64,000 nucleotides of DNA from contig CP064975.1 of assembly GCA_016699425.1 (NCBI GenBank), positions 194,979-258,978 of the forward strand. The letters run 5' to 3'. Source of the DNA: Candidatus Moraniibacteriota bacterium. GTDB lineage: Bacteria > Patescibacteriota > Minisyncoccia > Moranbacterales > UBA1568. This document shows, in pieces, positions 1-11,931 of the stretch. Made by a program: the position numbers and the translations under genes. The notes beneath the pieces were generated by a model. The model saw nothing but the letters and a program-made list of their open reading frames with translations. It had not been told where the DNA came from and searched no databases. How positions within the stretch are numbered: the stretch's first letter is position 1; every line of letters begins with the position of its first letter.

Positions 1-978
1 CGCACCGAGATTGGCATCGACGAGCATGAGGTAGTCATTGTTCCAGTCGGTATTGACCGTACCATCCCACTTCACGCCAGCGACGATATCTTGGAGCGCA
101 GTGTCTTTGAAGGAGAGCATGACATTTTTCTCTCCGAGCTCACGATGAGCGAACTCGATCATCTTGGGGATGTTCTCGACGGTGGCGAGGCGCTTCACCA
201 TCTCGGTGGCGAGGACTTTCATGATTGCCTTGCGGTTCTGCTTCAATTCGGCGGCGACATCATCCCCGAGATAGGCCTTTTCCACCACTTCCTCGAGCTT
301 CAGCGCACCACCGTCGGACGTGAAAGTAGTGGAGTAACCCGGTGGTGTGATCGGTCCGGTGATGACGAGCGCATGGTCGAAGACATTGGCATTGATCGCG
401 ATCACTCCATCGAATTTTTGACCACCACCAGCCAGTCGATAGAAATATTCAGCCTTGGCAGCGTTGGTCGGGAAATCCGGCGAAAAATTCGAATCGCGCA
501 TCTTCCAGCGTTTCAGCTGGAGCTTGCGGGTGAGGGGATAGGGCGGTGTAATTTTCACCGTGATGCGCTGGTCGAGCAAGTTGGCATCCTCGACGAAGGT
601 CGAGAGGACCTGACCGTCTTTCACCTTTACGATCGCGTACTGGCCGAGGAAGCCGCCGCCGGGGCGGAGCTCGTAATTATTCTGAAGCAGCACGAGATAA
701 GTGCGCTGAATTCCGTCCTTCTTCAGGAGCGCTTCGGCGAGCTGGTTGACGGCGGCAAGTTCTTTTTTCGTATCGGCTTCGAGGGGGAGGAATTTGGAGA
801 CTTTGGCGATGGCAGAGAGGCCGCCGAGAGCAAACTCTTGCTTATGATCCTTGGCGAAAAAAACCGTCGCACCGCCGGCCAGGATGATGATGAGAGTGAG
901 GGCGATAAAAAAACGCTTCCAAGTGAACCATGACACCTTTCCTGGCGAGTAGCGCTCCTGGCTGGAATGTATTGCCAT
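1..978 (-). CDS. DUF4012 domain protein (N-terminal part; C-terminus runs past window start)
   Basis: Minus-strand frame open from ATG at 978 (cat at 976-978) to the window edge. Translation MAIHSSQERYSPGKVSWFTWKRFFIALTLIIILAGG... (TM anchor) then LVLLQNNYELRPGGGFLGQYA, a DUF4012-like motif. ORF-track entries 91..933(+) and 842..1153(-) are shadow or partial frames of this gene. Confidence 0.65.
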   Translation of the reverse strand, partial: MAIHSSQERYSPGKVSWFTWKRFFIALTLIIILAGGATVFFAKDHKQEFALGGLSAIAKVSKFLPLEADTKKELAAVNQLAEALLKKDGIQRTYLVLLQNNYELRPGGGFLGQYAIVKVKDGQVLSTFVEDANLLDQRITVKITPPYPLTRKLQLKRWKMRDSNFSPDFPTNAAKAEYFYRLAGGGQKFDGVIAINANVFDHALVITGPITPPGYSTTFTSDGGALKLEEVVEKAYLGDDVAAELKQNRKAIMKVLATEMVKRLATVENIPKMIEFAHRELGEKNVMLSFKDTALQDIVAGVKWDGTVNTDWNNDYLMLVDANLGA

Positions 979-1311
979 AATGTTTGTTTGAGTTCTCTAT
1001 TTTTTCAAAGACAAAAGGTGCGGTGGTGAACCAAGTTGGTATGAGAGATGAGAAAAATCTATTTTGATACTCCCCAATGATACCAAGAAGTGCGGGCTTT
1101 GACGAACGCTTGATTTGCTCACGCGCATGAGCTATAAAGAGTGTGTTTCGCACTCTGATTGGTAATACGATCAGGGCGTCGAATCAGGCGAGATTAGCCC
1201 GCCCGCAGTGGTACGCGCAGTGTTTCGGGCATATATACTGTGTATAGTACCTGCCTACCGCAGCCATGCATGACCTTAATTAGATACGGCGAATCTTCGA
1301 GTTTCCAATTA

Positions 1312-1382
1312 GCGGGTATAGTATAGTGGTAATACGTGACCTTCCCAAGGTTAAGCGACGAGTTCGATTCTCGTTACCCGCT
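1312..1382 (+). tRNA. tRNA-Gly (anticodon CCC)
   Basis: Cloverleaf read by eye: acceptor GCGGGTA/TACCCGC, D-stem GTAT/ATAC, anticodon stem TGACC/GGTTA with loop TTCCCAA, T-arm ACGAG-TTCGATT-CTCGT, discriminator T. CCA is not encoded. The spurious ORF 1326..1592 overlaps it. Confidence 0.8.
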
Positions 1383-1482
1383 CAATGTTTTTTAGGTGAG
1401 GCATGGGTTCCCTGCCTGTCGGCGGCAGGGATTTACGTATCTCGCCTAGTACTGAACGGCAGTGGTATACTGGAGGAAATAT

Positions 1483-2253
1483 ATGGCGAACAAGAATTTC
1501 TCATTCGGCGAGGCGTTTGGGGCCGGCTGGGCGAAGCTGAAAGAGCACTGGGTGTTTCTCATCGTAGCCTACATGACGGTTCTCGTAGTTAGCGGCCTGT
1601 TCAGCGCGATCGCACAAGGGCCATACCAGGGCATCGAACCGACGAGTGGTCTGCTCGAACTCATCGGATTCCTGATCCGTATCTGGTTGAATTTCAACTT
1701 TCTCGTCATCACGATCCGCCTCTTCGACGATGTGAAACCAGCGTGGCGCGACCTCTTTGTCTGGCGCGAAGAAACTATTCCCTATGTCGGAGCCTCGATC
1801 CTCTATGTGTTGATCGTGTGCCTCGGTCTCATTGCCTTCATCATTCCAGGAATCTACTTCTCGGTGAAGTATAGCTTTTACGGGTTTCTCATTGCCGACA
1901 AGAAGATGGGAGCATTTGACGCCTTGAAGGCGAGTGGTCAGATGACAGACGGAGTGAAGTGGCTCCTCATCGGATTCGGCTTTGCCTCTGCGGGCGTCGT
2001 CCTCCTCGGCGCTTTGGCACTCGGTGTCGGGCTTCTGATCGCATTACCAGTCATTTCACTCGCGCTTGTCGCTGTCTACCGCTCACTCTATGATCAGACC
2101 TTTGATCTGGTGACGGCGACTCCGGGGACGGTCGTCACTACCTCACTCGCAGAGATGTTGGTTGTTCCCGATCCCGAGACTTCGGCTGCATCCAAGGCCA
2201 AGGTTCCAGAAGTCATGGTTACCCCAGCCCCCCAGACTTCAGAGAAACAGTAG
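1483..2253 (+). CDS. hypothetical integral membrane protein (multi-TM)
   Basis: GGAGG RBS 8 nt before ATG 1483 (internal M of ORF 1462..2253). Translation MANKNFSFGEAFGAGWAKLKEHWVFLIVAY... contains several hydrophobic helices and a Pro/Thr/Ser-rich C-terminus. Confidence 0.6.
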   Translation: MANKNFSFGEAFGAGWAKLKEHWVFLIVAYMTVLVVSGLFSAIAQGPYQGIEPTSGLLELIGFLIRIWLNFNFLVITIRLFDDVKPAWRDLFVWREETIPYVGASILYVLIVCLGLIAFIIPGIYFSVKYSFYGFLIADKKMGAFDALKASGQMTDGVKWLLIGFGFASAGVVLLGALALGVGLLIALPVISLALVAVYRSLYDQTFDLVTATPGTVVTTSLAEMLVVPDPETSAASKAKVPEVMVTPAPQTSEKQ

Positions 2254-2333
2254 GTGTTTCCCACGTGTGTTGGCGACTCCACACCATCTGCTGCGCCAGT
2301 GAGGTATGAGTACCGTCAGCGGTTCACCTCAGA

Positions 2334-4289
2334 CTATTCGGCCTCCTTCGTCGCGACCGATGACTCGGTTAGCCAATCGTTCAAGAATCCGTTCAAACTG
2401 CTCTGCCAGTTAGCGAGGAAATCGTCGCTTTCAAAGAGTTCGAATGGGAACAGGGAGAGTGGGAACGTCGCGCGGGAGAGATGAAGCTTCTGAAAGAGTA
2501 CCGAGAACTCAGAAGATGATTTGATGGATTCTTGCGCCGGGTCATGGGCTCCCTCAACTGGCAGGGGGACATCCTCTGGTCCCATCGTCTCGCTGGTAGG
2601 TGTCGGAGCAGCAGTTTCGTCCGACACATTCGTTGTTGCCTCGGTTTCTTCGCTTGGTGCGGTGCTGGGATCTTCAGCCGCGCTCTCCTCGATCGGTTCG
2701 GCTGGCGTCGTGATGGTGACGAGTGACTGACCCTTTTCCTTCCTCAACAGGGTATCGTCGGCTAAGCTTTTTTCGAACTTATATTTCAGGTGTTGAATGG
2801 CTTTGCCATCCGGGGTGCGCAGCTCGACATGGCCACGCTCATTACCAAGGGTGAAGAGCGAGTGCGCGCGGGTGAGCCGTCTCACGGATTTCGGTGGGAT
2901 GATGAAATCTTCGCGGATCGGGTGATTAGTGATGGATTTCTTCTTGGTTCCCGTCGCGATACTGAAACCTTTTAAATTGATTTCGCGTTTTTCCCGATTC
3001 TCGATCTCAATCCACTCTAAATCTGAGTCATTGCCCTTGGGATTCGGCAAGAGAGAAACAATGCGGACTTTCGGCGCGGCATATTTCTCGATCTTGATAT
3101 CAAACGTCTCTCGCGTCGTATCGATACCGTCATCGGTCGTCAATGTGATCGTGTAGCGTCCGGACTTCACATATTTGTGCGACGTATTTTCTTTGAAACT
3201 TTTGTGGCCATCGCCGAAGTCCCAGGTGAATTTCAACTTGTCGCCGTCCGTGTCCTTGCCGCGGGCACGGAATTCGATCGCGAAGTTGCGGTGGCCTTTT
3301 TTCGGGACGCGTTCCTTCGTCACTGGATCGGTATTCTCACTATTCGCCGCACCCGGTGTCGGTTTGCGCGCCCCACGGAGTACTCCTGCGACGAGATTGA
3401 GGGAGACGCCTTCTTTCGTTTTCTCATACTGTACCCGATGCACGAGCCGCTTCTGGCTGTCGCTGAGTGAGAGCGTTTCGTGGGAATTGTTTAGTGACAA
3501 GGAAAACTCTTTGTCTGTGATGACGAGATAACTGAGGGCGGAAAGCGTCGTCCCGTCGGGAAAGACATATTTCCCCGTCGTTGGAGCGTCACGGAGTTCC
3601 CAGCCGGAGAGGTCGATAGTTTCCATGCCGGGGTGGTAGAGCTCGATGAATTCGCCCGCGTCACCCTTTTCTTTTGGGTTCGGTAGGACCTCATTGATGA
3701 ATAACTGATAGAGACTGGGTTTCGTTCCGGTGCCCACGGTTTCATCGGTGACGACAAAGAGCTCACCTCTCGAGTTTGTCGGTGTCAGGCTGATCGTCTT
3801 GGACCATGTGAGTGCGACAGGATCACGGACGAAGCTTTCTTTCTCTGCGGGATTGCCAAATTGCGTCGGTGCAAAGGGAAGTGCGTGCCCGGTGCCCCAG
3901 GTGAGCGAATCGATGAGCGTATCGTCTTTGTCATACAGCGCGAGGCTGTTGTTGTCCGACAGGCTCGAGCCGGTTGTCGCATCGGCATGGTCCTTATACA
4001 TACTCGCACTGTTCGCCCAGAGGAAATATCCGTGAGCAGGGATGCTGTCAGTACTGCCAAACGATTTCAGTGAACTACCCGTAGCGGTCATATCGCTGAC
4101 GCTCTTCCGGCGCAGGCTCCAACCCGACAGATTCACGGCTGTGTCGCTGCTATTGTAGAGTTCGGCGAACTCGTCTGAGGCTTTCGCACCAGCGATCGCT
4201 ACTTCACTGAGTATCACCGTGGCGAATACCGGAGTCGGAGCGAGGAGGATGATGATGCTAAGGGCGAAGAAATAAGAGCGTACGGACAT
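2334..4289 (-). CDS. secreted cell-surface protein with two lamin-tail domains (LTD) and a PKD domain
   Basis: Internal start MSVRSYFFALSIIILLAPTPVFA gives a signal peptide. Two LTD-like motifs: INEVLPNPKEKGDAGEFIELYHPG...LSGWELRD and IVSLLPNPKGNDSDLEWIEIEN...LKGFSI. PKD-like motif FTWDFGDGHKS...YVKSGRYTITLTTDDG. ORF-track 2334..4394 has a 35-aa 5' extension with no signal-peptide logic. Confidence 0.7.
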   Translation of the reverse strand: MSVRSYFFALSIIILLAPTPVFATVILSEVAIAGAKASDEFAELYNSSDTAVNLSGWSLRRKSVSDMTATGSSLKSFGSTDSIPAHGYFLWANSASMYKDHADATTGSSLSDNNSLALYDKDDTLIDSLTWGTGHALPFAPTQFGNPAEKESFVRDPVALTWSKTISLTPTNSRGELFVVTDETVGTGTKPSLYQLFINEVLPNPKEKGDAGEFIELYHPGMETIDLSGWELRDAPTTGKYVFPDGTTLSALSYLVITDKEFSLSLNNSHETLSLSDSQKRLVHRVQYEKTKEGVSLNLVAGVLRGARKPTPGAANSENTDPVTKERVPKKGHRNFAIEFRARGKDTDGDKLKFTWDFGDGHKSFKENTSHKYVKSGRYTITLTTDDGIDTTRETFDIKIEKYAAPKVRIVSLLPNPKGNDSDLEWIEIENREKREINLKGFSIATGTKKKSITNHPIREDFIIPPKSVRRLTRAHSLFTLGNERGHVELRTPDGKAIQHLKYKFEKSLADDTLLRKEKGQSLVTITTPAEPIEESAAEDPSTAPSEETEATTNVSDETAAPTPTSETMGPEDVPLPVEGAHDPAQESIKSSSEFSVLFQKLHLSRATFPLSLFPFELFESDDFLANWQSSLNGFLNDWLTESSVATKEAE

Positions 4290-4352
4290 AACCGGATATG
4301 GGTAAAATTTCTGAACGCTCCAGCCTAGCAGATCCGCCAGCAATTTCCAGTC

Positions 4353-4381
4353 TTGACAAAAAATTTCATTCATAGTTAGAT
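4353..4381 (+). promoter_or_regulatory. sigma70-like promoter (TTGACA-17-TTAGAT) upstream of CDS 4451
   Basis: TTGACA at 4353-4358, 17-nt spacer, TTAGAT at 4376-4381. AGGAG RBS at 4434-4438, 7 nt before the ATG. Confidence 0.4.
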
Positions 4382-4450
4382 ACCAGTCTGCCAACCAACT
4401 GGTTTGTGCAGAAAACAGCCCTTCGACAACTTGACTATTAGGAGCAAGAA

Positions 4451-5146
4451 ATGGCCATGTCCAGAAATCAGCTCAACCGTGCTATGAACGGCCTCCGTCC
4501 CGGTGATGTGCTCACGAACCTGAACTGCGGTGGCTGCCAGAACCGCCAGATCCTGGTCTTGGCCCGTGCCGGCGATTATCGCTACGACTTCTCGGTCCGT
4601 GCCGACGAGGTCAAAATCATTCGCGATTCCAAGGGCCCGTGGCGCTGGGTCGAGCACGAGCAGGTCTTCCGCAACAGCGATGGCCTGGTGCACGACCACA
4701 TCGGCACCGAGATCGAGGTGCGCGAGGGCGCTGGCTTACGCGAACTGCAGTGGTACCGCGAACTCCCGAGCCCGGGGCTGGTGCGTTTCCACATCGATCC
4801 GCGGGGCGCACTCGGTTCCTTCCGGGATCCGTCGACCGAGGCCAAGCTCGAAGCCATCGTCAATCGTTCCGACGACAACGATGGCTTTGCTCGCGACTTG
4901 CAGCAAGCCGTCGAACTCATCTTTGCCGGGTCAACGGACGCGGTGGACGAACGCCGTATGCGCTATCTCGTCAGCCTCGTCCACGCTGTCGGGCAAAAGC
5001 TCGGCCGCGACCGTCAACCGGGCGCTGAAGACATCCTCATGTCTATCCTCATGGGAGGTGAGGGCTTTGCTGATTTGCTGGGCGCCGCCGGTCGGGCCGA
5101 ACGTCACCGCGCCGAATCCAATGGCGCTACCCGCCGGTCCGCGTAA
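4451..5146 (+). CDS. hypothetical protein in a high-GC island
   Basis: 231-aa ORF with a good AGGAG RBS. GC is about 63% with strong GC3 bias, versus ~53% in the flanks, and several overlapping shadow ORFs typical of high-GC coding DNA. No recognisable domain. Confidence 0.55.
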   Translation: MAMSRNQLNRAMNGLRPGDVLTNLNCGGCQNRQILVLARAGDYRYDFSVRADEVKIIRDSKGPWRWVEHEQVFRNSDGLVHDHIGTEIEVREGAGLRELQWYRELPSPGLVRFHIDPRGALGSFRDPSTEAKLEAIVNRSDDNDGFARDLQQAVELIFAGSTDAVDERRMRYLVSLVHAVGQKLGRDRQPGAEDILMSILMGGEGFADLLGAAGRAERHRAESNGATRRSA

Positions 5147-5297
5147 ACAGGACTAAATAGTCCGGCTGAGTTCATTTGCGTCCATCATTATGGACACTGC
5201 GTCACATGGCGACCCCGCCTTGTGACGTTTTTTCTTTTCTTAAGCCAGTCGCTTTCCCTGCCATAAAGACGCATTTGGATGTCTTACCGCGGAATAC

Positions 5298-5324
5298 TTG
5301 ACAGTAATTGATCGCTTCTATAAG
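5298..5324 (+). promoter_or_regulatory. candidate rRNA operon promoter (TTGACA-15-TATAAG)
   Basis: TTGACA 5298-5303 and TATAAG 5319-5324, about 530 nt upstream of the 23S 5' end. The intervening leader is non-coding. Confidence 0.4.
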
Positions 5325-6091
5325 ATAGAGAAACCGCTTTAGAAACGGCAAAACATTACTCAACTGTGGAACTCAACGGTAACTAAATACGGATCGATTG
5401 AGTAGGGTGTATACCGGCTCAGAACCGGATTTTTTTTTGAAAACAAGCTTGTTCGGAAAGAGAGAGGTTTGGGCTTGCCCCGTACCACACCTGCCGAGGT
5501 ATGGTTATGAGGCAAAAGTTTTTTCTCGCAGCATCTCTGATCTGTCGTGAGTAACGATAGAAGCCAGGTGTGGTGATGGGGTGAAACTTCCTCCAGGATT
5601 CATCTTTCCGCGCAAGAAATCTTAACAATCATTGAAGTCTTTGTGAGTACGCCGAATATTGTGCCGCATGCGCGGGGCTAGGGCGAGTATACTCAAAAGT
5701 CAACGTTGTAAGGTCGCTGTATCATGTTTCGTCAAGGGACATGGTATGGCAAGCAATAGAAGAAACGGTGAAGTCTGCGCAAACATTCTTCATCGTCAAC
5801 TGAAGTGTCCGTGAGTGTTCTAGCAATAGAGCATTGGCGGACATTCAAATGAAAGCAGGTTACCAACGCAGAGTGTGGATGCCTTGACTTATGCAAGCGA
5901 CGAAGGACGTAGGAGGCTGCGAAAAGCCCCGGGGAGCTGTCAACCAAGCTGTGATCCGAGGATATCCGAATGGGGCAACCCTCTGGTAGCAATACCGGAA
6001 CGATAGTCTGAATACATAGGGCTACCGAGCAAACCCAGTGAATTGAAACATCTTAGTAGCTGGAGGAAAAGAAATTAATAAAGATTCCGTC

Positions 6092-6125
<34 letters not shown>

Positions 6126-6421
6126 ACCATGTTTACATGAGTGGGGTTGCAGGGCTGATGGACTCGATTGATCGGGGTCCAGTACAATCGTTAGGAGAAG
6201 GTTCTGGAAAGGACCACCACAGGGGGTAATAGTCCCGTATCCGAAAACGATTTGTACTTGATGCATCAGTTCCTAAGTAGGGCGGGGCCGGAGAAACCCC
6301 GTTTGAATCTGGGAGCACTAACTTCCAAGGCTAAACATTGCATAAGATCGATAGCGAACTAGTACCGTGAGGGAAAGGTGAAAAGCATCCCGAAAGGGAG
6401 GTGAAATAGAACTGAAACTCT

Positions 6422-6810
6422 CTGCTAACAAAGAGTCGGAGCCGTGCCTCAATTCTGTTGAGTACGGAATGACCCGCGTAACCGCTGACCAAACAACACT
6501 CAGTTTCAATGACTGAAACTTCATGCATTTCATTGAGGAAAAAACGGCGCGTGTATAGCTCAGTTGGTAGAGCGCTTCCTTGCCAAGGAAGAGGTCACGA
6601 GTTCGAGACTCGTTACGCGCTCCACTCTCCCTAGCTAGAGTGGTTATTCCTCGAACGGTGAAGGTACAATGTATCCTCGCCTCCTCAATGAAGTGCATGA
6701 ATACTTTCGGAATTTGAAATTGATTGTTTGTATTCTTTTGGCGGATAGGTGGCATTCTGTAGTGGATAGAATTGAGGTACGGTGACGGCGTGCTTTTTGC
6801 AGCACGATCC
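6422..6810 (+). other. intervening sequence / expansion at 23S helix 25 (about E. coli positions 530-580) containing a tRNA gene
   Basis: 23S collinearity breaks after GAACTGAAAC (6412-6421) and resumes near TGTACGGTTTGTCTAAGGGATGACGAG...GTGAAAGCGAGCCTGAATAGGGCG (~6790-6860). An inverted repeat CTTCATGCATTTCATTGAGG (6524-6543) / CCTCAATGAAGTGCATGAAT (6683-6702) brackets the tRNA. Confidence 0.65.
6548..6623 (+). tRNA. tRNA-Gly (anticodon GCC) with encoded CCA, nested inside the 23S rRNA helix-25 intervening sequence
   Basis: Canonical cloverleaf. Acceptor GCGTGTA/TACGCGC (7 bp, one G-U), U8 A9, D-stem GCTC/GAGC with loop AGTTGGTA. Anticodon stem CTTCC/GGAAG with loop TTGCCAA, variable AGGTC, T-arm ACGAG-TTCGAGA-CTCGT, discriminator T, CCA at 6621-6623. 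Confidence 0.85.
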
Positions 6811-7939
6811 AACGAGTTTGTTCTGTACGGTTTGTCTAAGGGATGACGAGTTCCGGAGACATAGTGAAAGCGAGCCTGAATAGGGCGAAATTATAATCGT
6901 ATGGACAAGACCCGAAGCCGGGCGAGCTACACTTGAGCAGGGTGAAGCGTGGGTAAAACCACGTGGAGGCCCGAACCCACTCGCTGTGCAACACGAGGGG
7001 ATGACTTGAGTGTAGGGGAGAAATTCCAATCGAGCTCGGCAATAGCTGGTTCTCTCCGAAATAGCTTGAGGGCTAGCGTCCTGTGTATATTTATCCGAGG
7101 GGTAGAGCTACTGGATGAGACTCCGCGCGCAAGCGTAGGTGTCTCAACCAAACTCCGAATACTCGAGATAACGAACAGGGCAGTCAGTACTACGGGGCTA
7201 AGCTCGTAGCACAAAAGGGAAACAGCCCAGATCGTCAGCTAAGGTCCCTAAATCTATGCTAAGTGGGAAAGGAAGTGGAAACTCTCAGACACTGAGGAGG
7301 TTGGCTTAGAAGCAGCCATCCTTTAAAGAGTGCGTAATAGCTCACTCATCTAGAGATTCTGCGCCGACAATGTAACGGGGCTAAGCATAGTACCGAAGCT
7401 ACGGATTTCGTCGCAAGACGGAGTGGTAGGAGAGCGTCCCATGTGCACCGAAGCGGAAGGGCGACTGACCGTGGAGCGCATGGAAGTGAGAATGTTGGAA
7501 TGAGTAACCGCAATGTGAGTGAGATCCTCACACATCGAAAGTCCGAGGTTTCCTGGGCCATGGTGATCACCCCAGGGTTAGTCGGTCCTAAGGCGAGGCT
7601 GAAAGGCGTAGTCGATGGACATCAGGTTAATATTCCTGAACTAGGGTTTTATTCGAAGGAGTGACGCATCGTTGTATCGTTCGCCCCTTATTGGATTGGG
7701 GTCGTGTTTCTGAGGATGTCATGTAGGCAAATCCGCATGGCGCGTATCCGATGGAAATGGGCGTGGTCCCGCTTCGGCGGGACGAAGGGAAGAGAGCACG
7801 GTGCCAGGAAAAGCTTCTTAGTTATGTAAAACTCTATCCGTACCGCAAACCGACACAGGTGGACAGGGCGAGTAGCCTAAGATGAACGGGAGAGCATTCG
7901 TTAAGGAACTAGGCAAAAAAGCTAGACGTAAGTTCGCAA

Positions 7940-8446
7940 TATGTCTTCCCGGCTTTACATTCAGTTCTTCAGAATCATTGAAGAAGATGAGTCAATCGGG
8001 GAAGTCAAGGAGAAATAGGAATTTTTGGAACGAAGGTGGAACATGTGGTGTTGTATGGCTGTCGTCAGCTCCGTGTCGTGAGATGCTGGAGAGCGAGCGC
8101 AACCCCTTTGCTAGCTGCTCTTCTGCAATTCGAGAAGCGCGCAGCTGGGACTGCCGGTGACAAACCGGAGGAAGGTGGGGATGACGATCCAGTCCTCGTA
8201 GCCCATGAAGTGGCCCGGCGAACGCCGCGCCAGTAACCACAGCCGTGGCCAGCAGCCGCGGTAATCACGGTATTCGTTTCCAATTGGATCAGGCGGAGAG
8301 CGCTCCAAGGCAGGGATTAGATACCCCGTGCACGCGCTCACGCCCTCCGTAATTCCTACGTTTCTTTTTCCTTGGTCTTCCCCGACCAATTTCTTCTTCG
8401 TGAGGACTGAAGGTTTGAATGTAAAGTCGGGCGCAGCGAAAGTTTT
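7940..8446 (+). other. ~500-nt expansion in 23S helix 63 region composed of rearranged 16S rRNA-like segments
   Basis: Lies between 23S ...GGAACTAGGCAAAAAAGC...CGCAATATGTCTTCCCGGC and ...CAAGCAACTGTTTACCAAAAACACAA. It carries 16S-type motifs: GGAACATGTGGTGTTGTATGGCTGTCGTCAGCTCCGTGTCGTGAGATG, GAGCGCAACCCC, and GACTGCCGGTGACAAACCGGAGGAAGGTGGGGATGACG (8150-8187, 16S ~1175-1200). Then GTGGCCAGCAGCCGCGGTAAT (8246-8266, 16S ~515) and GGATTAGATACCCC (8314-8327, 16S ~790). Their order does not match 16S order. Confidence 0.6.
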
Positions 8447-8905
8447 TCAAGCAACTGTTTACCAAAAACACAACTCTCTGCAAACCCGCAAGGGGAAGTA
8501 TAGGGGGTGACACCTGACCAGTGCTGGAACGTTAACGGGAGCGGTTCACGCCAATCCCCGAAGCGCCAGTGAACGTCGGCGATAACTATAATCGTCCTAA
8601 GGTAGCGAAATTCCTTGTCAGGTAAGTTCTGACCCGCATGAAAGGTGTAATGACTTGAAAACTGTCTCAACGAACATCCCGGTGAAATTGCAATGACGGT
8701 AAAGATGCCGTCGACCTGCAGCAAGACGAAAAGACCCCATGGAGCTTTACTACAACTTGGTATTGACTTAGAGTTTTTGTTGCCGAGCATAGGTGGGAGA
8801 CGTTGAAGCGCGGGTTCAGGCCTGCGTGGAGTCAACACTGGAATACCACCCTGCAAGAATTCTAATTCTAACCTGCCACCATAATCTGGTGGGGGGACAG
8901 TGCCT

Positions 8906-8940
<35 letters not shown>

Positions 8941-9160
8941 AAGCAACGGAGGCGTTTACAAAGGTAGGCTAGGCCCGGATGGAAATCGGGCCGATAGCGC
9001 AAACGCACAAGCCTGCTTTACTGAAAGACTCATCAGTCGATCAGTCACGAAAGTGGAAGTTAGTGAACCGACCATCACTCGTAGGAGTGTGGAAGATCAT
9101 CAGATAAAAGTTACCCTGGGGATAACAGGCTGATCCTATCCAAGAGTCCATATCGACGAT

Positions 9161-9203
<43 letters not shown>

Positions 9204-9274
9204 GAGAAGCTCCCAAGGGTTTGGCTGTTCGCCAATTAAAGCGGTACGTGAGCTGGGTTCAAACCGTGAAGCAG

Positions 9275-9950
9275 CGAAGCTGCTTGACTGAGTAACCAAC
9301 AATAAACAACCTACAACAGAATTGGAATGCATTTTTGTTGTGAGTAGAAAGTTGTCGGTTGTCGGTTAAAGCATTTAGCTTTTTCACAGTTTGAATCCGA
9401 GGTAGAAGACATCAAAGGTATTTTCGTCTTTGAAACAACGATAAGAAATCAATCGCATCACGGCGGTCCTTTCTTTCACTTTACGGTGGAAAAAAGGAAC
9501 AAGCTGACTCATTTCGGTGGAGTCCGACATCTATCAAAGGTTGTCTGGATAATACCGAGGGAAGTAAAAGTTGTGAGTTTCGTAGAGAGTAATCTCAATG
9601 AATTAAGGTAACGTTCGACTGACGTCATGTGCACCATGAGCGTTAGTGTCTCGTAAGAGACTAGGACACATCAAGTCTGTTGTCGGTTAAGTCGTAAAGA
9701 CTGCGCGCAGCGCCGACAGTAAGTTGATGGACGCAGGGGAAGATCCTGTTGCCTTAATGAGATAAAGTTATGAACCTGAACCGGGTTCATGCTTTCTACG
9801 AAATTCATGATGAGTAACACCCGTAGAGACTAAACGTCAGCATGGATAGTGGTGATGATGAAGGGTTTGGAAATTCATCTAATTTCTAACATCTAACATC
9901 TATCATCTCTCCATAAGCTATAGTCCAATGCATCGAGCAATCGGTGGTAC
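9275..9950 (+). other. ~680-nt intron-like insertion in 23S at the I-CreI/I-CeuI homing-site position (E. coli ~2593), no intact ORF
   Basis: 23S reads GGTACGTGAGCTGGGTTCAAACCGTGAAG up to ~9270 and resumes ...GGTGGTACCATGCGTGAGACAGGTTGGTTTCCTATCTGC at ~9950. The equivalent E. coli sequence GGGTTTAGAACGTCGTGAGACAGTTCGG is contiguous. No ORF of 60 aa or more lies inside. Confidence 0.55.
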
Positions 9951-10098
9951 CATGCGTGAGACAGGTTGGTTTCCTATCTGCTGTAGGCGTTAAGTGACTT
10001 GAGAGAACTCTTTCCTAGTACGAGAGGACCGGAAAGAACGAACCTCTGGTGTGCCTGCTGTCCTGCCAAGGGCACCGCAGGGTAGCTATGTTCGGGCA

Positions 10099-10131
<33 letters not shown>

Positions 10132-10512
10132 GAGCTCAAGATAAGGTCACGTCCCTCACCAATTTTGTGCAGCGCAAGGCGCAAACAAAAACCTCGTTTA
10201 AATCTATTGAGATGACCGTCTCAATAACTGGACGAGAAGTGCATAACGGAAAAGTTATGGCGCAAAATTGGTGAGGGAGGAAGTCCTGGAAGATGACCAG
10301 GTTGATAGGTTGCAGGTGTACGCCCTGTGAGGGGTTCAGCCGAGCAATACTAATACGATTCCATACCACTTTCATTTGTATTCAGTTGGCGGTGAAGAGT
10401 GCTTGAAAAGCCCTCTCGTCTCCATTGCAGTCTTACAACTTTGCAGCTTCATTTCAAACCAGAGTTTCTGGCCCGCCTCGCGTCGATAAGCAGCGCGAGT
10501 CGAGGTGGGTGC

Positions 10513-10555
10513 CTCTAGCGACCGGGAAACACCCGATACCTTTCTGAACTCGATG
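10513..10555 (+). repeat. partial duplicate of 5S rRNA 5' half
   Basis: CTCTAGCGACCGGGAAACACCCGATACCTTTCTGAACTCGATG versus 5S CTTCTAGCGAAGTGGAAACACCCGATCCCTTTCCGAACTCGGCAG. Confidence 0.6.
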
Positions 10556-10565
10556 TTTGAAAAAA

Positions 10566-10681
10566 TAGTTCTCGGTGCTTCTAGCGAAGTGGAAACACCC
10601 GATCCCTTTCCGAACTCGGCAGTTAAGCACTTCAGCGCCGATGGTAGCCTCCGGGCAAGAGTAGGCCAGTGCCGAGAACTA
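10566..10681 (+). rRNA. rrf: 5S ribosomal RNA
   Basis: Helix I TAGTTCTCGGTGC / GTGCCGAGAACTA. Internal CCGAACTCGGCAGTTAAGCACTTCAGCGCCGATGGTAGCCTCCGGGCAAGAGTAGGCCAG matches 5S consensus (CCGAACUCAGAAGUGAAAC...GCGCCGAUGGUAGUG...GAGAGUAGG). Confidence 0.8.
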
Positions 10682-10710
10682 TTTTTTCAAAGTCAGCGTC
10701 CCGCCAGGGC

Positions 10711-10741
10711 GGGATAGCCTCCGGGCAAGAGTAGGTCGGCC
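10711..10741 (+). repeat. partial duplicate of 5S rRNA 3' half
   Basis: GGGATAGCCTCCGGGCAAGAGTAGGTCGGCC versus 5S CGATGGTAGCCTCCGGGCAAGAGTAGGCCAGTGCC. Confidence 0.6.
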
Positions 10742-11044
10742 TGTCCGAAACGCTTCGCGTAGCGATGCGGGCGGGTGCCAGTCTGCCTGCCGGTAGGCAG
10801 GGAACCCTGAGTTGAAATGAATCCGATCCTCCACGAAACAGGAATGCTGTGGTGAGGTGGGAGTGGACAGAAGTTTTGCTTGCAGCAGGCAGATCTTAAT
10901 TGCTTAGGGTCCGGTGAGATTCGACACCAACGGACCAAAGGCCCAGAGTAAGTGCCTGCCCATAATAGCGAAACGGATAGGCCCTCCCCCTCGCCTCTCC
11001 AGAGCATTTCTTCACAACACTGAGCCTCATTTCGATGGGGCTTT

Positions 11045-11055
11045 TGTGTTATAAT
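11045..11055 (+). promoter_or_regulatory. extended -10 promoter (TGtTATAAT)
   Basis: TGTGTTATAAT at 11045-11055, about 25 nt upstream of ATG 11080. Confidence 0.4.
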
Positions 11056-11079
11056 GGGCTTGATTTCGAATCTTTCCCC

Positions 11080-11931
11080 ATGTTGACCTTCACCCGCGAT
11101 ACCAAGCGTCTGACGATTGTCGTCGTGTATCTCCTCATCTTGCTCCTTATGGGTGCGGGGATATTTTTCATTTTCAAGCCGAAAGCGACCTGCTTTGATA
11201 GCGTGCAAAACCAGGACGAACAGGGTGTGGATTGCGGCGGTATCTGCACCAATGCGTGTGTTGCCCGGATCGTGGGCAATGACCTCCTTGTGCGAGAGAT
11301 TACGTTTATTCCAACCGATCGAGGCCGGTATGATGTTATCGCGCGCGTCTTTAATCCGAACAACGATATCGGCGCGTCGAGTTTCCAATATTCGCTCCTG
11401 TTGCGTGATGCAGCGGGCAAAGAGGTTGGTCGGGTGCAGGAGACGAGCTTTATCTTGCCGCAAGAAACGAAAACTTTGCTTGCGTTCAATCTCGAACCGG
11501 CGCAAGTCCCGACCAAGGCGGTCGTTGAACTGTCGGATTTCCAATGGGCGCGCCTGCGAGAACACCGGGCCAAGCCGGCCCTCAACATCTATGGTAAGCG
11601 CTATGTCGAACATCCGAATGAGGCTGCGTTCGGGGCGGTGATGGGGACACTCGTCAATGAGAGTACCTATGATCTCCGGAAGATCCAAATCAAGGTGGTG
11701 CTGCGTGATGCGGCGGGCACACCACTGGCCGCCAATCAGACCGAAATGCAGACAGTCAATGTTGGCCGCGAAATGGATATCATCCTGCCATTCCCACAGT
11801 CCTTCGCCGGCACCGTCGCTCAAGTGGATGCTGAGGTAGAAGCGGATATTTTCGATAGCGAAAATTTCATCCAGCGCTATGATGTCCCTGAAGACACTCC
11901 CTCGAGGACTCCTGGGGGGCAAGGCCTATGA
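11080..11931 (+). CDS. hypothetical membrane-anchored extracytoplasmic protein, translationally coupled to the downstream SEDS gene
   Basis: Internal ATG of ORF 11035..11931 lies downstream of the -10. N-terminal TM LTIVVVYLLILLLMGAGIFFIF, then a beta-rich soluble domain. Stop overlaps the next start (ATGA at 11928-11931). The long antisense ORF 10693..11922(-) is rejected. Confidence 0.6.
   Translation: MLTFTRDTKRLTIVVVYLLILLLMGAGIFFIFKPKATCFDSVQNQDEQGVDCGGICTNACVARIVGNDLLVREITFIPTDRGRYDVIARVFNPNNDIGASSFQYSLLLRDAAGKEVGRVQETSFILPQETKTLLAFNLEPAQVPTKAVVELSDFQWARLREHRAKPALNIYGKRYVEHPNEAAFGAVMGTLVNESTYDLRKIQIKVVLRDAAGTPLAANQTEMQTVNVGREMDIILPFPQSFAGTVAQVDAEVEADIFDSENFIQRYDVPEDTPSRTPGGQGL

Follow-up and report, generated by a model that had tools for sequence, protein, structure and literature searches.

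The 23S rRNA gene in the window (the whole 64-kb stretch of Moraniibacteriota DNA analysed here) carries a 474-nt insertion in helix 63 (H63), in which a long double-stranded rod bears a branched tip made of 16S rRNA-like pieces. The insertion is genuine and not a product of misassembly, and most likely it is a dispensable intervening sequence (IVS) rather than a working part of the ribosome. We consider it probable that it belongs to the IVS type, sits in the H63 loop as a polymorphic and recombining element with 16S-templated cargo, and would be excised by RNase III.

The host gene lies on the plus strand at 5852 to ~10377 (~4.5 kb), with its start at the beginning of the LSU model match (5852; cmscan). 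A BLAST alignment to E. coli 23S reaches position 2884 at window 10354, and the LSU end in a second strain, L007 (8450), corresponds to window 10377; the LSU end given by cmscan at 9384 is an artefact, because an insert interrupts the gene at 2593. Four insertions were identified in this gene, at H25, H63, position 2593/2594 and H98, and a 5S gene follows at 10571-10677. No 16S gene was detected by cmscan in the 64-kb window, leaving a 23S-5S pair without 16S. Matches to the RodA protein carry the name Candidatus Moraniibacteriota, and the gene content of the window is CPR-like (DprA, a type IV pilus ATPase, giant surface proteins); neither a reverse transcriptase nor a homing endonuclease occurs among the genes near the 23S, and a look-up of the upstream genes (a 231-aa ORF and an LTD/PKD protein) gave no record. 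In a published survey, 82% of CPR 23S genes contain insertions, among them long, ORF-less, non-intron inserts of unexplained function (PMC11270868). A second study describes H63 as normally missing in CPR (PMC9297842), and rnc is retained in these bacteria (PMC12641178).

To either side of the insertion the 23S sequence is continuous with E. coli rrlH by BLAST (6782-7936 to 23S 553-1695, and 8451-9267 to 1770-2593), and the gap left between E. coli 1695 and 1770 therefore places extra sequence at H63. A preliminary description of this DNA had reported an expansion of ~500 nt at helix 63, and every motif that it quoted was present at its position; relatives with an empty site narrowed the borders to 7952-8425 (plus strand, 474 nt). 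Those relatives, L014 and L015 (96% RodA identity) and L019 (83%), keep a tiny H63 hairpin (CCCGAtcgcaagGTCGGG, which divides as TCTTCCCG-ATCGCAAG-GTCGGGCGCAGC). The insertion replaces the 8-nt loop of this reduced hairpin, CCCG-atcgcaag-GTCGGG in the relatives against CCCG-GCTTTACATT...GAATGTAAA-GTCGGG in the window, and leaves the base of the helix untouched.

An independent assembly of a 99%-identical strain (L007; GCA_049645545.1) carries the insertion with the same junctions, the same outer rod and the same 530 and 790 modules, and a third contig (L008) holds part of it, beginning with 21 nt inside the 3' arm. The element is thus sporadic among close relatives, as an IVS would be, and the rod it shares with L007 and the empty site in the relatives show that it is not a chimera, nor an expansion segment fixed long ago. 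For further relatives, sought through RodA homologues (P0014, P0006), the contigs all break at rRNA. Among GTDB representative genomes, all matches to the short-gap 530..790 pattern were either true 16S genes that carry deletions or junk contigs of low coverage, none in a 23S context. JGI metagenomes gave 0 matches both for the 790 motif at a fixed distance from the 23S flank and for a 530..790 pattern tolerating the L007 indel, and IMG/VR gave 0 matches for an h34 block lacking h37. The suggestion in the preliminary description that an ancient insertion now serves as an expansion segment does not agree with a site that is empty at 96% and 83% RodA identity, polymorphic at 99% identity, and without counterparts in the GTDB and JGI searches.

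In the predicted fold, the two ends of the insert come together in a long double-stranded stem, as is typical of an IVS. The 5' arm (7948-8034, plus strand) and the 3' arm (8351-8431, plus strand) form helices of 17, 7, 4, 8, 9, 11 and 8 bp, and the whole folds as a rod of ~80 bp with a branched 16S-like tip (MFE -227.7 kcal/mol; z = -8.4 in the window and -6.5 in L007). The innermost stretches of 6 and 4 bp (8025-8034) pair in the MFE fold with 8273-8283 in the tip, not with the 3' arm. Seven of the 82 predicted rod pairs are G-U; the antisense strand folds 24 kcal/mol worse, and the G-U pairs favour the sense strand. Bulges, including those of the 3' strand, and internal loops interrupt the rod, which also contains a stack of 9+11 bp. 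As no unbroken helix in it exceeds 17 bp, cutting by RNase III is plausible without being certain.

The tip resembles 16S rRNA in several separate pieces, in both sequence and structure, as expected of a 16S pseudogene. The Rfam model SSU_rRNA_bacteria (RF00177) matched 8047-8204 (plus strand; 85.4 bits, E 1.1e-22, model 1037-1201), exceeding the gathering score, with every aligned pair canonical and the universal h37 hairpin deleted. This covariance search had been proposed with the preliminary description and reproduced the partial 16S match expected there. The block corresponds to E. coli ~1047-1211 in the 3' major domain (h34, h35, h36, h38-h40) and was also recovered by BLAST (16S 1047-1210); model 1037-1201 (85 bits) is the only part of the SSU model found in the window, far from a full-length match. 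Adjoining it at 8035-8049 (plus strand), GGTGGAACATGTGGT agrees with E. coli 16S 941-955 at 14/15 positions (short-word BLAST); alone this likeness is not significant (p 0.135), and it takes its weight only from the h34 block, to which it is fused directly, so that h31-h33 are missing. The 955|1047 junction has GGTG as microhomology, read from the sequence.

Two further pieces follow, both on the plus strand. At 8199-8268, resembling 16S ~486-537, a partly duplicated 5' strand of h18 precedes a 530-loop hairpin: 8199-8248 aligned to 16S 486-530 with a score that beat 200/200 shuffles (local alignment), 8248-8265 is identical to E. coli 16S 517-534 (18/18; short-word BLAST), and the 530-loop sequence, GTGGCCAGCAGCCGCGGTAAT, has one surplus G. 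At 8286-8348 lies an h24-like hairpin with the 790 loop, in which GGATTAGATACCC (8314-8326) equals 16S 785-797 (13/13; short-word BLAST) and 8314-8335 aligns to 785-810 (p 0.04; local alignment). This hairpin lacks the central-domain helices between ~581 and ~764 and is closed by a short helix, GAGCGC/GCGCUC. The window has a single instance of the 530-to-790 short-gap pattern, against 0/100 shuffles. A likeness of 8275-8311 to 16S 549-586 was set aside as not significant (p 0.37). The insert also contains sites resembling the 515F and 806R primers, ~80 bp apart.

All pieces run in the sense orientation, in the order 941-955, 1047-1211, ~486-534, the weak 549-586 and 785-810, and the deletions of h31-33, h37 and h21-23 are clean in that they keep the folds. 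The RF00177 match (E 1.1e-22) and the BLAST matches to 517-534 and 785-797 bear out the earlier proposal of 16S-derived, rearranged cargo with deletions. The order had also been called scrambled; it is indeed rearranged relative to 16S, but the pieces follow the 16S order with a single wrap-around and with whole helices deleted, not as a free scramble, and because the blocks are so few a statistic on their order means nothing. The idea that an intact 16S is nested here together with its processing stem was rejected since the pieces lack colinearity. Also dropped was a simple dimer of 16S, head to tail and with deletions, which fits the window and fits the L007 order (486-500 / 1389-1411 / 511) poorly.

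Comparison of the window with L007 revealed a constant scaffold around exchangeable contents. The two are 100% identical across 7880-8003 and 8388-8480, and they differ in a central cassette (8037-8195, plus strand), which in the window comprises the 5' strand of 16S h30 and the h34-h40 block and in L007 consists of other 16S-derived sequence. The L007 cassette matches the 16S model at 237-283 (27.9 bits, E 2e-6), 16S 1389-1411 (p 0.005; local alignment) and 16S ~138-149 (12/12, not significant alone), and the 530-loop region of L007 matches model 502-529 at 9 bits. The point where the two cassettes rejoin has GATGACG as microhomology, again read from the sequence. Since the pieces in L007 run 138-283, possibly ~486-500, 1389-1411 and then 511 onward, more than simple deletions from one colinear copy is needed. 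Overall, the interiors of the alleles are ~17-25% diverged between genomes that are 99% identical.

Many of these differences keep the predicted pairing. Across the scaffold, 16 one-sided and 6 two-sided changes preserve pairs; the inner 3' arm of the rod shows A-U to G-U changes and one double compensatory change (8003/8378), and the 790-loop hairpin is kept in the two-allele consensus fold through 2 double compensatory and 3 G-U changes. The universal 16S cores have 0/31 substitutions between the alleles, as compared with 21/123 (17%) elsewhere (Fisher p 0.008; n = 2 alleles), and the core-conservation statistics as a whole (p 0.008-0.017) are drawn from two sequences, so that arguments from conservation are thin because only two full alleles exist. 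Each allele also has a private 1-nt indel in its 530 core, one extra G in the window and one G too few in L007. RNA-level constraint on the 16S-like loops is weakly suggested, and the conserved cores and compensated 790 hairpin hint at selection that a pure junk model would not foresee.

A second insert of the same design occupies H25 (6442-6782), whereas H63 is not among the canonical IVS sites, H25 and H45. Its rod (z -12.3) is common to the window and L007 and its tip cargo has been swapped, an intact tRNA-Gly(GCC) with encoded CCA at 6549-6624 in the window standing against unrelated sequence in L007, for which Rfam gave nothing credible. No 16S- or 23S-like pieces were found in the other inserts of the window 23S gene.

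We propose that illegitimate copying, guided by microhomology, brought the cargo from 16S rDNA or rRNA to a site that tolerates insertion, and that deletions and recombination between alleles may later have reshaped it. With interiors ~17-25% diverged in otherwise nearly identical genomes, the alleles would predate the split of the strains and would have been exchanged through the conserved 23S flanks. During 23S maturation the rod may be cut by RNase III, like the classical H25 and H45 intervening sequences, which would remove the 16S-like domain and leave the mature 23S fragmented at H63. The element would then be dispensable for the ribosome, neutral or selfish, with structural constraint serving mainly to keep it compact and harmless. 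Among the options raised in the preliminary description, a degraded 16S pseudogene comes closest; it needs amending in that the 16S sequence is the cargo of a CPR IVS-type insertion whose inner hairpins hint at some RNA-level constraint.

Several other explanations were weighed against this IVS-type reading. A chimeric assembly of 23S and 16S reads, also raised earlier, might be suspected from the difficulty of assembling rRNA regions, the relatives' contigs that break at rRNA, with L008 beginning inside the 3' arm, and a window cassette (8037-8195) known from one assembly only. It is hardly credible given the identical junctions, rod and 530/790 modules of the independent L007 assembly, the complementarity of the arms over ~80 bp, and cassette junctions that share 4-7 nt, far under the k-mer of any assembler. 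Moreover, real 16S never lacks h37, h31-33 or h21-23, and the absence of these helices together with the private indels means that the 16S-like parts cannot be reads of a functional 16S. It is very improbable that a decayed group I or II intron, or an element with a homing endonuclease, carried 16S exon flanks along into the 23S through ectopic homing. The 16S pieces flank known SSU intron sites (516, 788, 943/956, 1199 and 1389), and another insert of this 23S gene occupies the classical site at 2593. Such introns abound in CPR rRNA genes, and 16S ~1400 and 1498 are homing-endonuclease hot spots, according to the CPR survey (PMC11270868). Rfam intron families, however, gave no match at E<=1 in 5000-11500 and none at E<=10 in 7940-8446, and the ORF list of the insert shows no homing endonuclease, only short overlapping ORFs of <=92 aa; a 196-aa ORF (8356-8946, minus strand) is antisense 23S entering from the 3' flank. 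The concatenated six-frame translation of the insert matched nothing in the protein database, and an exact look-up of the 10 spurious ORFs overlapping it found 0 in the collection. H63 is a variable helix tip and not the highly conserved rRNA stretch in which group I and group II introns insert, and rods at the termini characterise IVSs rather than ribozymes.

Two readings would give the insert a function. As a retained expansion segment at the site of ES27L, with rod and tip staying in the mature 23S and protruding from the 50S, it would occupy the same helix, and its bulged rod, with no perfect helix beyond 17 bp, might escape RNase III; H63 is solvent-exposed and lost harmlessly in CPR (PMC9297842), and rRNAs tolerate insertions at such sites (PMC2441807). 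We think this rather unlikely, because the insert is polymorphic and missing in near relatives, unlike lineage-fixed segments, because CPR keep RNase III (PMC12641178), and because the H25 sister insert, with its intact tRNA and encoded CCA, argues that the rods are processing substrates. It is also improbable that the tip is a functional mimic of 16S. On this view its 530 loop, 790 loop, h34 and, in L007, 1400-region hairpins would be selected for decoying or docking some partner, and the mimic could remain on the 50S or be set free as an RNA about as abundant as rRNA. The partner might be a toxin or an antibiotic that targets 16S, a factor of initiation, hibernation or biogenesis, or those bridge surfaces of the 50S that touch the 790 loop and h44. 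The unsubstituted cores between otherwise diverged alleles speak for mimicry, as do the 790-loop pairing that survives 2 double and 3 single changes, the sense orientation of all pieces with clean truncations that preserve folds, and the decoding-site elements present in both alleles despite different cassettes. On the other hand, close relatives manage without the insert and the GTDB, JGI and IMG/VR searches found none outside one species-level lineage; the private indels of the 530 cores would be deleterious in a real 530 loop, the statistics come from two sequences, a 1:1 decoy is a weak sponge, and the ligand is purely hypothetical. The fullest form of this idea, a selected 'mini-30S' module of decoding-site and bridge hairpins (530 loop, 790 loop, h34, 1400 region) that is equimolar with the ribosome and acts as a molecular mimic, we regard as distinctly improbable. 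Under it, the module would either stay attached to the 50S, at the ES27 site, or be set free by RNase III, and might, for example, act as bait for a toxin or factor directed at 16S, or as a built-in anti-association element occupying 50S bridge surfaces. Were it true, cassettes would be swapped between strains like the alleles of defence loci, the H25 rod with tRNA-Gly would be a second case, and 23S helix tips would be expression platforms for small RNAs.

Returning to the IVS-type reading, insertions in CPR rRNA genes are well known and their non-intron, ORF-less members are unexplained; the present case demonstrates that a second rRNA can supply the material of one. On a constant rod scaffold, the cargo is exchangeable between near-identical strains, and the neighbouring H25 insert likewise carries a complete tRNA. 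In these bacteria, 23S helix tips thus appear as tolerant landing sites where structured RNA is captured, trimmed helix by helix and recombined, a natural small-scale experiment in how expansion segments may originate. SSU matches within LSU genes also break rRNA-annotation pipelines, and whether the 16S-like loops are selected as 30S mimics is a testable question. Our literature search found no 16S-derived sequence within 23S inserts, and the accessible text of the CPR surveys (Brown et al. 2015; Tsurumaki et al. 2024, PMC11270868) describes no 16S-derived or tRNA-bearing insertion. In the pipeline of one published CPR survey, partial 23S matches were merged only if the gap between them contained no other rRNA match, and a gene like the one in the window would therefore have been lost.

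Among known systems, the insert resembles the CPR rRNA insertions in its host and in sharing a 23S gene with several others, including one at 2593, and it fits the class of ORF-less, non-intron inserts of 500-1000 bp and unexplained function that the CPR surveys describe. With the 23S IVSs it shares the replacement of a helix-tip loop, ends that form an extended stem, sporadic occurrence among relatives, horizontal exchange and a non-essential character, and canonical H25 is occupied by another insert in the window gene. Such IVSs are found in helices 25 and 45 of Salmonella, Campylobacter, Coxiella, Leptospira and others, where RNase III excises them without religation. It differs from them in its H63 site, in its much longer rod (~80 bp; 474 nt in total), in its cargo, a 16S mosaic where IVSs have anonymous sequence or an S23p-type ORF, and in an excision that is known for the IVSs and presumed here. 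Further parallels are rRNA pseudogene fragments, the rRNA genes of some organelles, which are fragmented and scrambled, and engineered hybrid rRNA such as Ribo-T. As in these, SSU and LSU sequence is interleaved in one transcription unit, and an SSU-derived, order-permuted segment is grafted into the loop of an LSU helix. In the window insert, nothing points to a supply of functional SSU rRNA or to subunit tethering, and the 16S-derived part is too incomplete to make a 30S subunit, as it has only ~300 nt and lacks most helices. With eukaryotic ES27L, finally, the insert has in common the helix, H63, and a long rod-like extension; ES27L is fixed across its lineage, kept in the mature rRNA and not SSU-derived, whereas the window insert is absent from near relatives, polymorphic and probably removed.

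An Rfam search found a bacterial SSU rRNA match inside the LSU gene (8047–8204; 85.4 bits, E = 1.1e-22; model 1037–1201), in which the h34, h35, h36 and h38–h40 pairings are retained with no non-canonical pairs flagged and the universal h37 hairpin is missing. Short-word BLAST against E. coli 16S identified further pieces at 8035–8049 (16S 941–955, 14/15), 8248–8265 (16S 517–534, 18/18) and 8314–8326 (16S 785–797, 13/13), while in local alignments 8199–8248 resembled 16S 486–530 (scoring above 200/200 shuffles) and 8314–8335 resembled 16S 785–810 (p = 0.04, shuffle control). Motifs of the 16S 530 and 790 loops ~50 nt apart were found at a single place in the window and in no shuffle. A preliminary description had claimed a ~500-nt scrambled 16S-derived expansion at 23S helix 63 (H63). 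Since every motif it quoted was present, and the SSU covariance model match, the BLAST pieces, the alignment with E. coli rrlH and the shuffle controls agree, a 16S-derived insert at this helix is confirmed. Its order claim held in part: the pieces, all sense-oriented, run 941–955, 1047–1211, ~486–534 and 785–810, which is rearranged relative to 16S, but as a single wrap-around with whole helices missing (h31–33, h37, h21–23) rather than as a free scramble. A suspected 16S 549–586-like stretch was not significant (p = 0.37, local alignment with shuffles). A functional 16S was rejected, as the majority of the molecule is absent, and Rfam found no full 16S anywhere in the 64-kb window. At 8246–8330, sites that match universal primers of the 515F and 806R types almost perfectly lie ~80 bp apart, and 16S V4 amplicon surveys could pick up a short off-target product from them.

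Alignment with rrlH gave the anatomy of the 23S gene, which starts at 5852 (Rfam) and ends at ~10377, ahead of the 5S rRNA (10571–10677); Rfam placed three tRNAs in the window. Segments 5875–6442, 6782–7936, 8451–9267 and 9955–10159 correspond to E. coli 23S 24–540, 553–1695, 1770–2593 and 2594–2793, respectively, and are separated by a 340-nt H25 insert (6442–6782) holding tRNA-Gly(GCC) (6549–6624), the H63 insert region (~7936–8451, ~515 extra nt) and a 688-nt insert at 23S 2593/2594 (9267–9955). An LSU end at 9384 in cmscan was an artefact of the latter; the LSU match of the sister locus L007 (independent assembly GCA_049645545.1) extends to the equivalent of window 10377. The 688-nt insert is ORF-less, shares parts with the relative L019, has no Rfam intron match at E ≤ 1, and lies at a classical group I intron/LAGLIDADG site. 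A 119-nt insertion at H98 (10159–10278) compares with ~15 nt in L019. Another relative, L014, carries a 784-nt insertion (778–1562; equivalent to window 8604–8612) that is absent from the window, presumably at a known intron site (~E. coli 23S 1917–1931, placed by eye). No 16S- or 23S-like pieces were found in the gene's other inserts or in one relative's intron-sized insert.

Related loci were fetched via the RodA protein, encoded just downstream, and its homologues. RodA is 100% identical to an NCBI protein of a Candidatus Moraniibacteriota MAG (1.2-Mb contig), and the neighboring genes (DprA, type IV pilus ATPase, giant surface proteins, RelA/SpoT, NrdD) fit a genome of the candidate phyla radiation (CPR)/Patescibacteria; no reverse transcriptase, transposase or homing endonuclease was found among the surrounding genes. 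Upstream synteny (window 1–5298 vs L007 1–3482) differs, with a breakpoint near window 5298: DUF975 and an LTD/PKD surface protein precede the 23S gene in the window and L019, and an alpha-2-macroglobulin-like gene and Memo precede it in L007. L014 and L015 (RodA 96%) and L019 (RodA 83%) have just ~70 nt between the H63 flanks, reading ...TCTTCCCG-ATCGCAAG-GTCGGGCGCAGC..., where the window reads ...CCCG-[474 nt]-GTCGGG.... This comparison bounds the insertion proper at 7952–8425, where it takes the place of the loop in a minimal H63 hairpin. Such a minimal hairpin agrees with the general lack of H63 published for CPR bacteria (PMC9297842).

L007 carries the insert with exactly the same junctions and an outer part (window 7880–8003 and 8388–8480) that is 100% identical, while identity falls to just ~75–80% in the inner scaffold and in the 530 and 790 modules. 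In place of the window's 8037–8195, which comprises the 941–955 piece and the h34–h40 block, L007 has ~70 nt of other sequence. This matches SSU model 237–283 (h11/h12; 27.9 bits, E = 2e-6), adjoins a 12/12 match to 16S 138–149 (alone not significant), and is followed by CTTGTACACACCACCCTCCACAC, equal to 16S 1389–1411 (p = 0.005), so that the two alleles bear different 16S-derived cassettes on one common scaffold. The interiors are 17–25% divergent or non-homologous, as against ~1% between the genomes, a difference which argues that the alleles must predate the strain split and have moved by recombination; the abrupt switch from 100% to ~80% identity within the rod is the signature expected of a recombination breakpoint. 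L007 is 99% identical to the window across 10 kb of coding DNA, including that flanking the 23S region, versus 95.5–98% across the 23S region itself (window 5298–11500 vs L007 3482–9573), and 23S identity in L014 and L015 is mosaic (81–99%); together, the excess divergence and the mosaic suggest frequent rDNA recombination. A third assembly (L008) has a contig that begins inside the 3′ arm, 21 nt from its end, which fits assemblers breaking at this polymorphism.

The window insert is predicted to fold at −227.7 kcal/mol (shuffles −174.3 ± 6.3; z = −8.4; L007 insert, z = −6.5) into a rod of 82 pairs (helices of 17, 7, 4, 8, 9, 11 and 8 bp), interrupted by bulges and one 8/6 internal loop and ending in a multibranched tip. 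The rod includes seven G-U pairs, and folding of the antisense strand is less favorable by 24 kcal/mol; for these reasons the predicted pairing is a property of the rRNA strand at the RNA level, not of an inverted repeat in the DNA. When the alleles are compared at the MFE pairs, 16 one-sided and 6 two-sided changes preserve pairing, with 20 apparent pair breaks mostly within the non-homologous center. No intron family matched at E ≤ 1 in 5000–11500 or at E ≤ 10 in the insert (Rfam), and an intron was rejected on this basis. ORFs across the insert are short and overlapping only; neither their exact sequences nor a six-frame query matched protein collections, and no coding capacity was detected.

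Searches for the 530 and 790 motifs separated by a short gap returned, among GTDB species representatives, only junk contigs and true 16S genes that bear deletions; two patterns searched in JGI metagenome contigs and one searched in IMG/VR gave no matches. Across these collections the element appears confined to one species-level lineage. Low-coverage GTDB contigs of ~390–400 nt (L001, L002, L004–L006; Virgibacillus, Streptomyces, Serratia) hold partial 16S in which the 515F-type motif GCCAGCAGCCGCGGTAAT is repeated several times in tandem; they resemble artefacts of amplicons or primers remaining in public assemblies.

Two further structured-RNA copies lie in the same operon. The H25 insert is also a long rod with a tip (fold z = −12.3), here a complete tRNA-Gly(GCC) cloverleaf with discriminator U and encoded CCA; L007 has the same rod with an unrelated ~230-nt cargo without an Rfam match. 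H25 is a classical site of RNase III intervening sequences (IVSs), in which a nested tRNA gene is unusual, and the tRNA within the tip implies that this region is processed. In the 23S–5S spacer, directly upstream of the 5S gene, 10507–10553 is a ~47-nt copy of the 5S rRNA 5′ half (87% identical to 10573–10619) that is also found in the more distant relatives L019 and L018. Copies of structured RNA embedded in transcribed, non-mature parts of the operon are therefore a recurring theme.

An assembly chimera of 23S and 16S reads, an option raised in the preliminary description, is highly improbable: although the window cassette (8037–8195), and no other part, comes from a single assembly, the junctions, rod and 530/790 modules agree between two assemblies, the rod arms are mutually complementary, the 16S-like parts lack helices present in every real 16S, and the cassette junctions share just 4–7 nt (TGGA, GATGACG). 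It is also doubtful that the 16S-like loops are conserved for a selected role as mimics. The universal cores GCCAGCAGCCGCGGTAAT and GGATTAGATACCC carry 0/31 substitutions between the two sequences compared, versus 21/123 in the remaining shared region (Fisher p = 0.008; p = 0.017 with gaps), and folding the shared 3′ module as a consensus retains a hairpin presenting the 790 loop (two double compensatory changes, three G-C/A-U to G-U), which is suggestive of constraint; each allele, however, has a private 1-nt indel within the 530 core. Retention in mature rRNA as an ES27-like segment, rather than excision, is likewise unlikely.

We consider it reasonably probable that the H63 element is a polymorphic, dispensable IVS-type insertion with 16S-copied cargo, because it replaces a loop, has a terminal stem, is sporadically distributed and has no ribozyme or ORF. 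Illegitimate, microhomology-guided copying of 16S rDNA or rRNA would have supplied the cargo, which would then have been trimmed helix by helix; strains would exchange the element by recombination via the conserved rod and 23S flanks, RNase III probably cuts it out at the rod, and the element would be neutral. The rnc gene is retained in CPR (PMC12641178). A catalogue of CPR insertions (PMC11270868) places them at recurrent sites in 82% of 23S genes, and about half of them are group I introns, many of which hold LAGLIDADG genes; short insertions at H25 and H45 are regarded there as RNase III IVSs, and an ORF-less, non-intron class of up to 500–1000 bp is unexplained.

The composition of the element is surprising, paired as it is with a tRNA-bearing H25 insert; its interest is moderated by its occurrence in one lineage, its absence from close relatives and the putative nature of any function. 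No earlier account of a 23S insert with 16S-derived sequence emerged from our literature searches, nor does the portion of the catalogue covered here describe a 16S-derived or tRNA-bearing insertion; in its method, partial 23S hits were joined solely where the gap held no other rRNA hit, a rule that would hide cases such as this one (PMC11270868). With ES27L the element has the helix alone in common. Classical IVSs are alike in loop replacement, terminal stem, sporadic presence and lack of a ribozyme or ORF, but differ in site, in size and, above all, in lacking rRNA-derived cargo.
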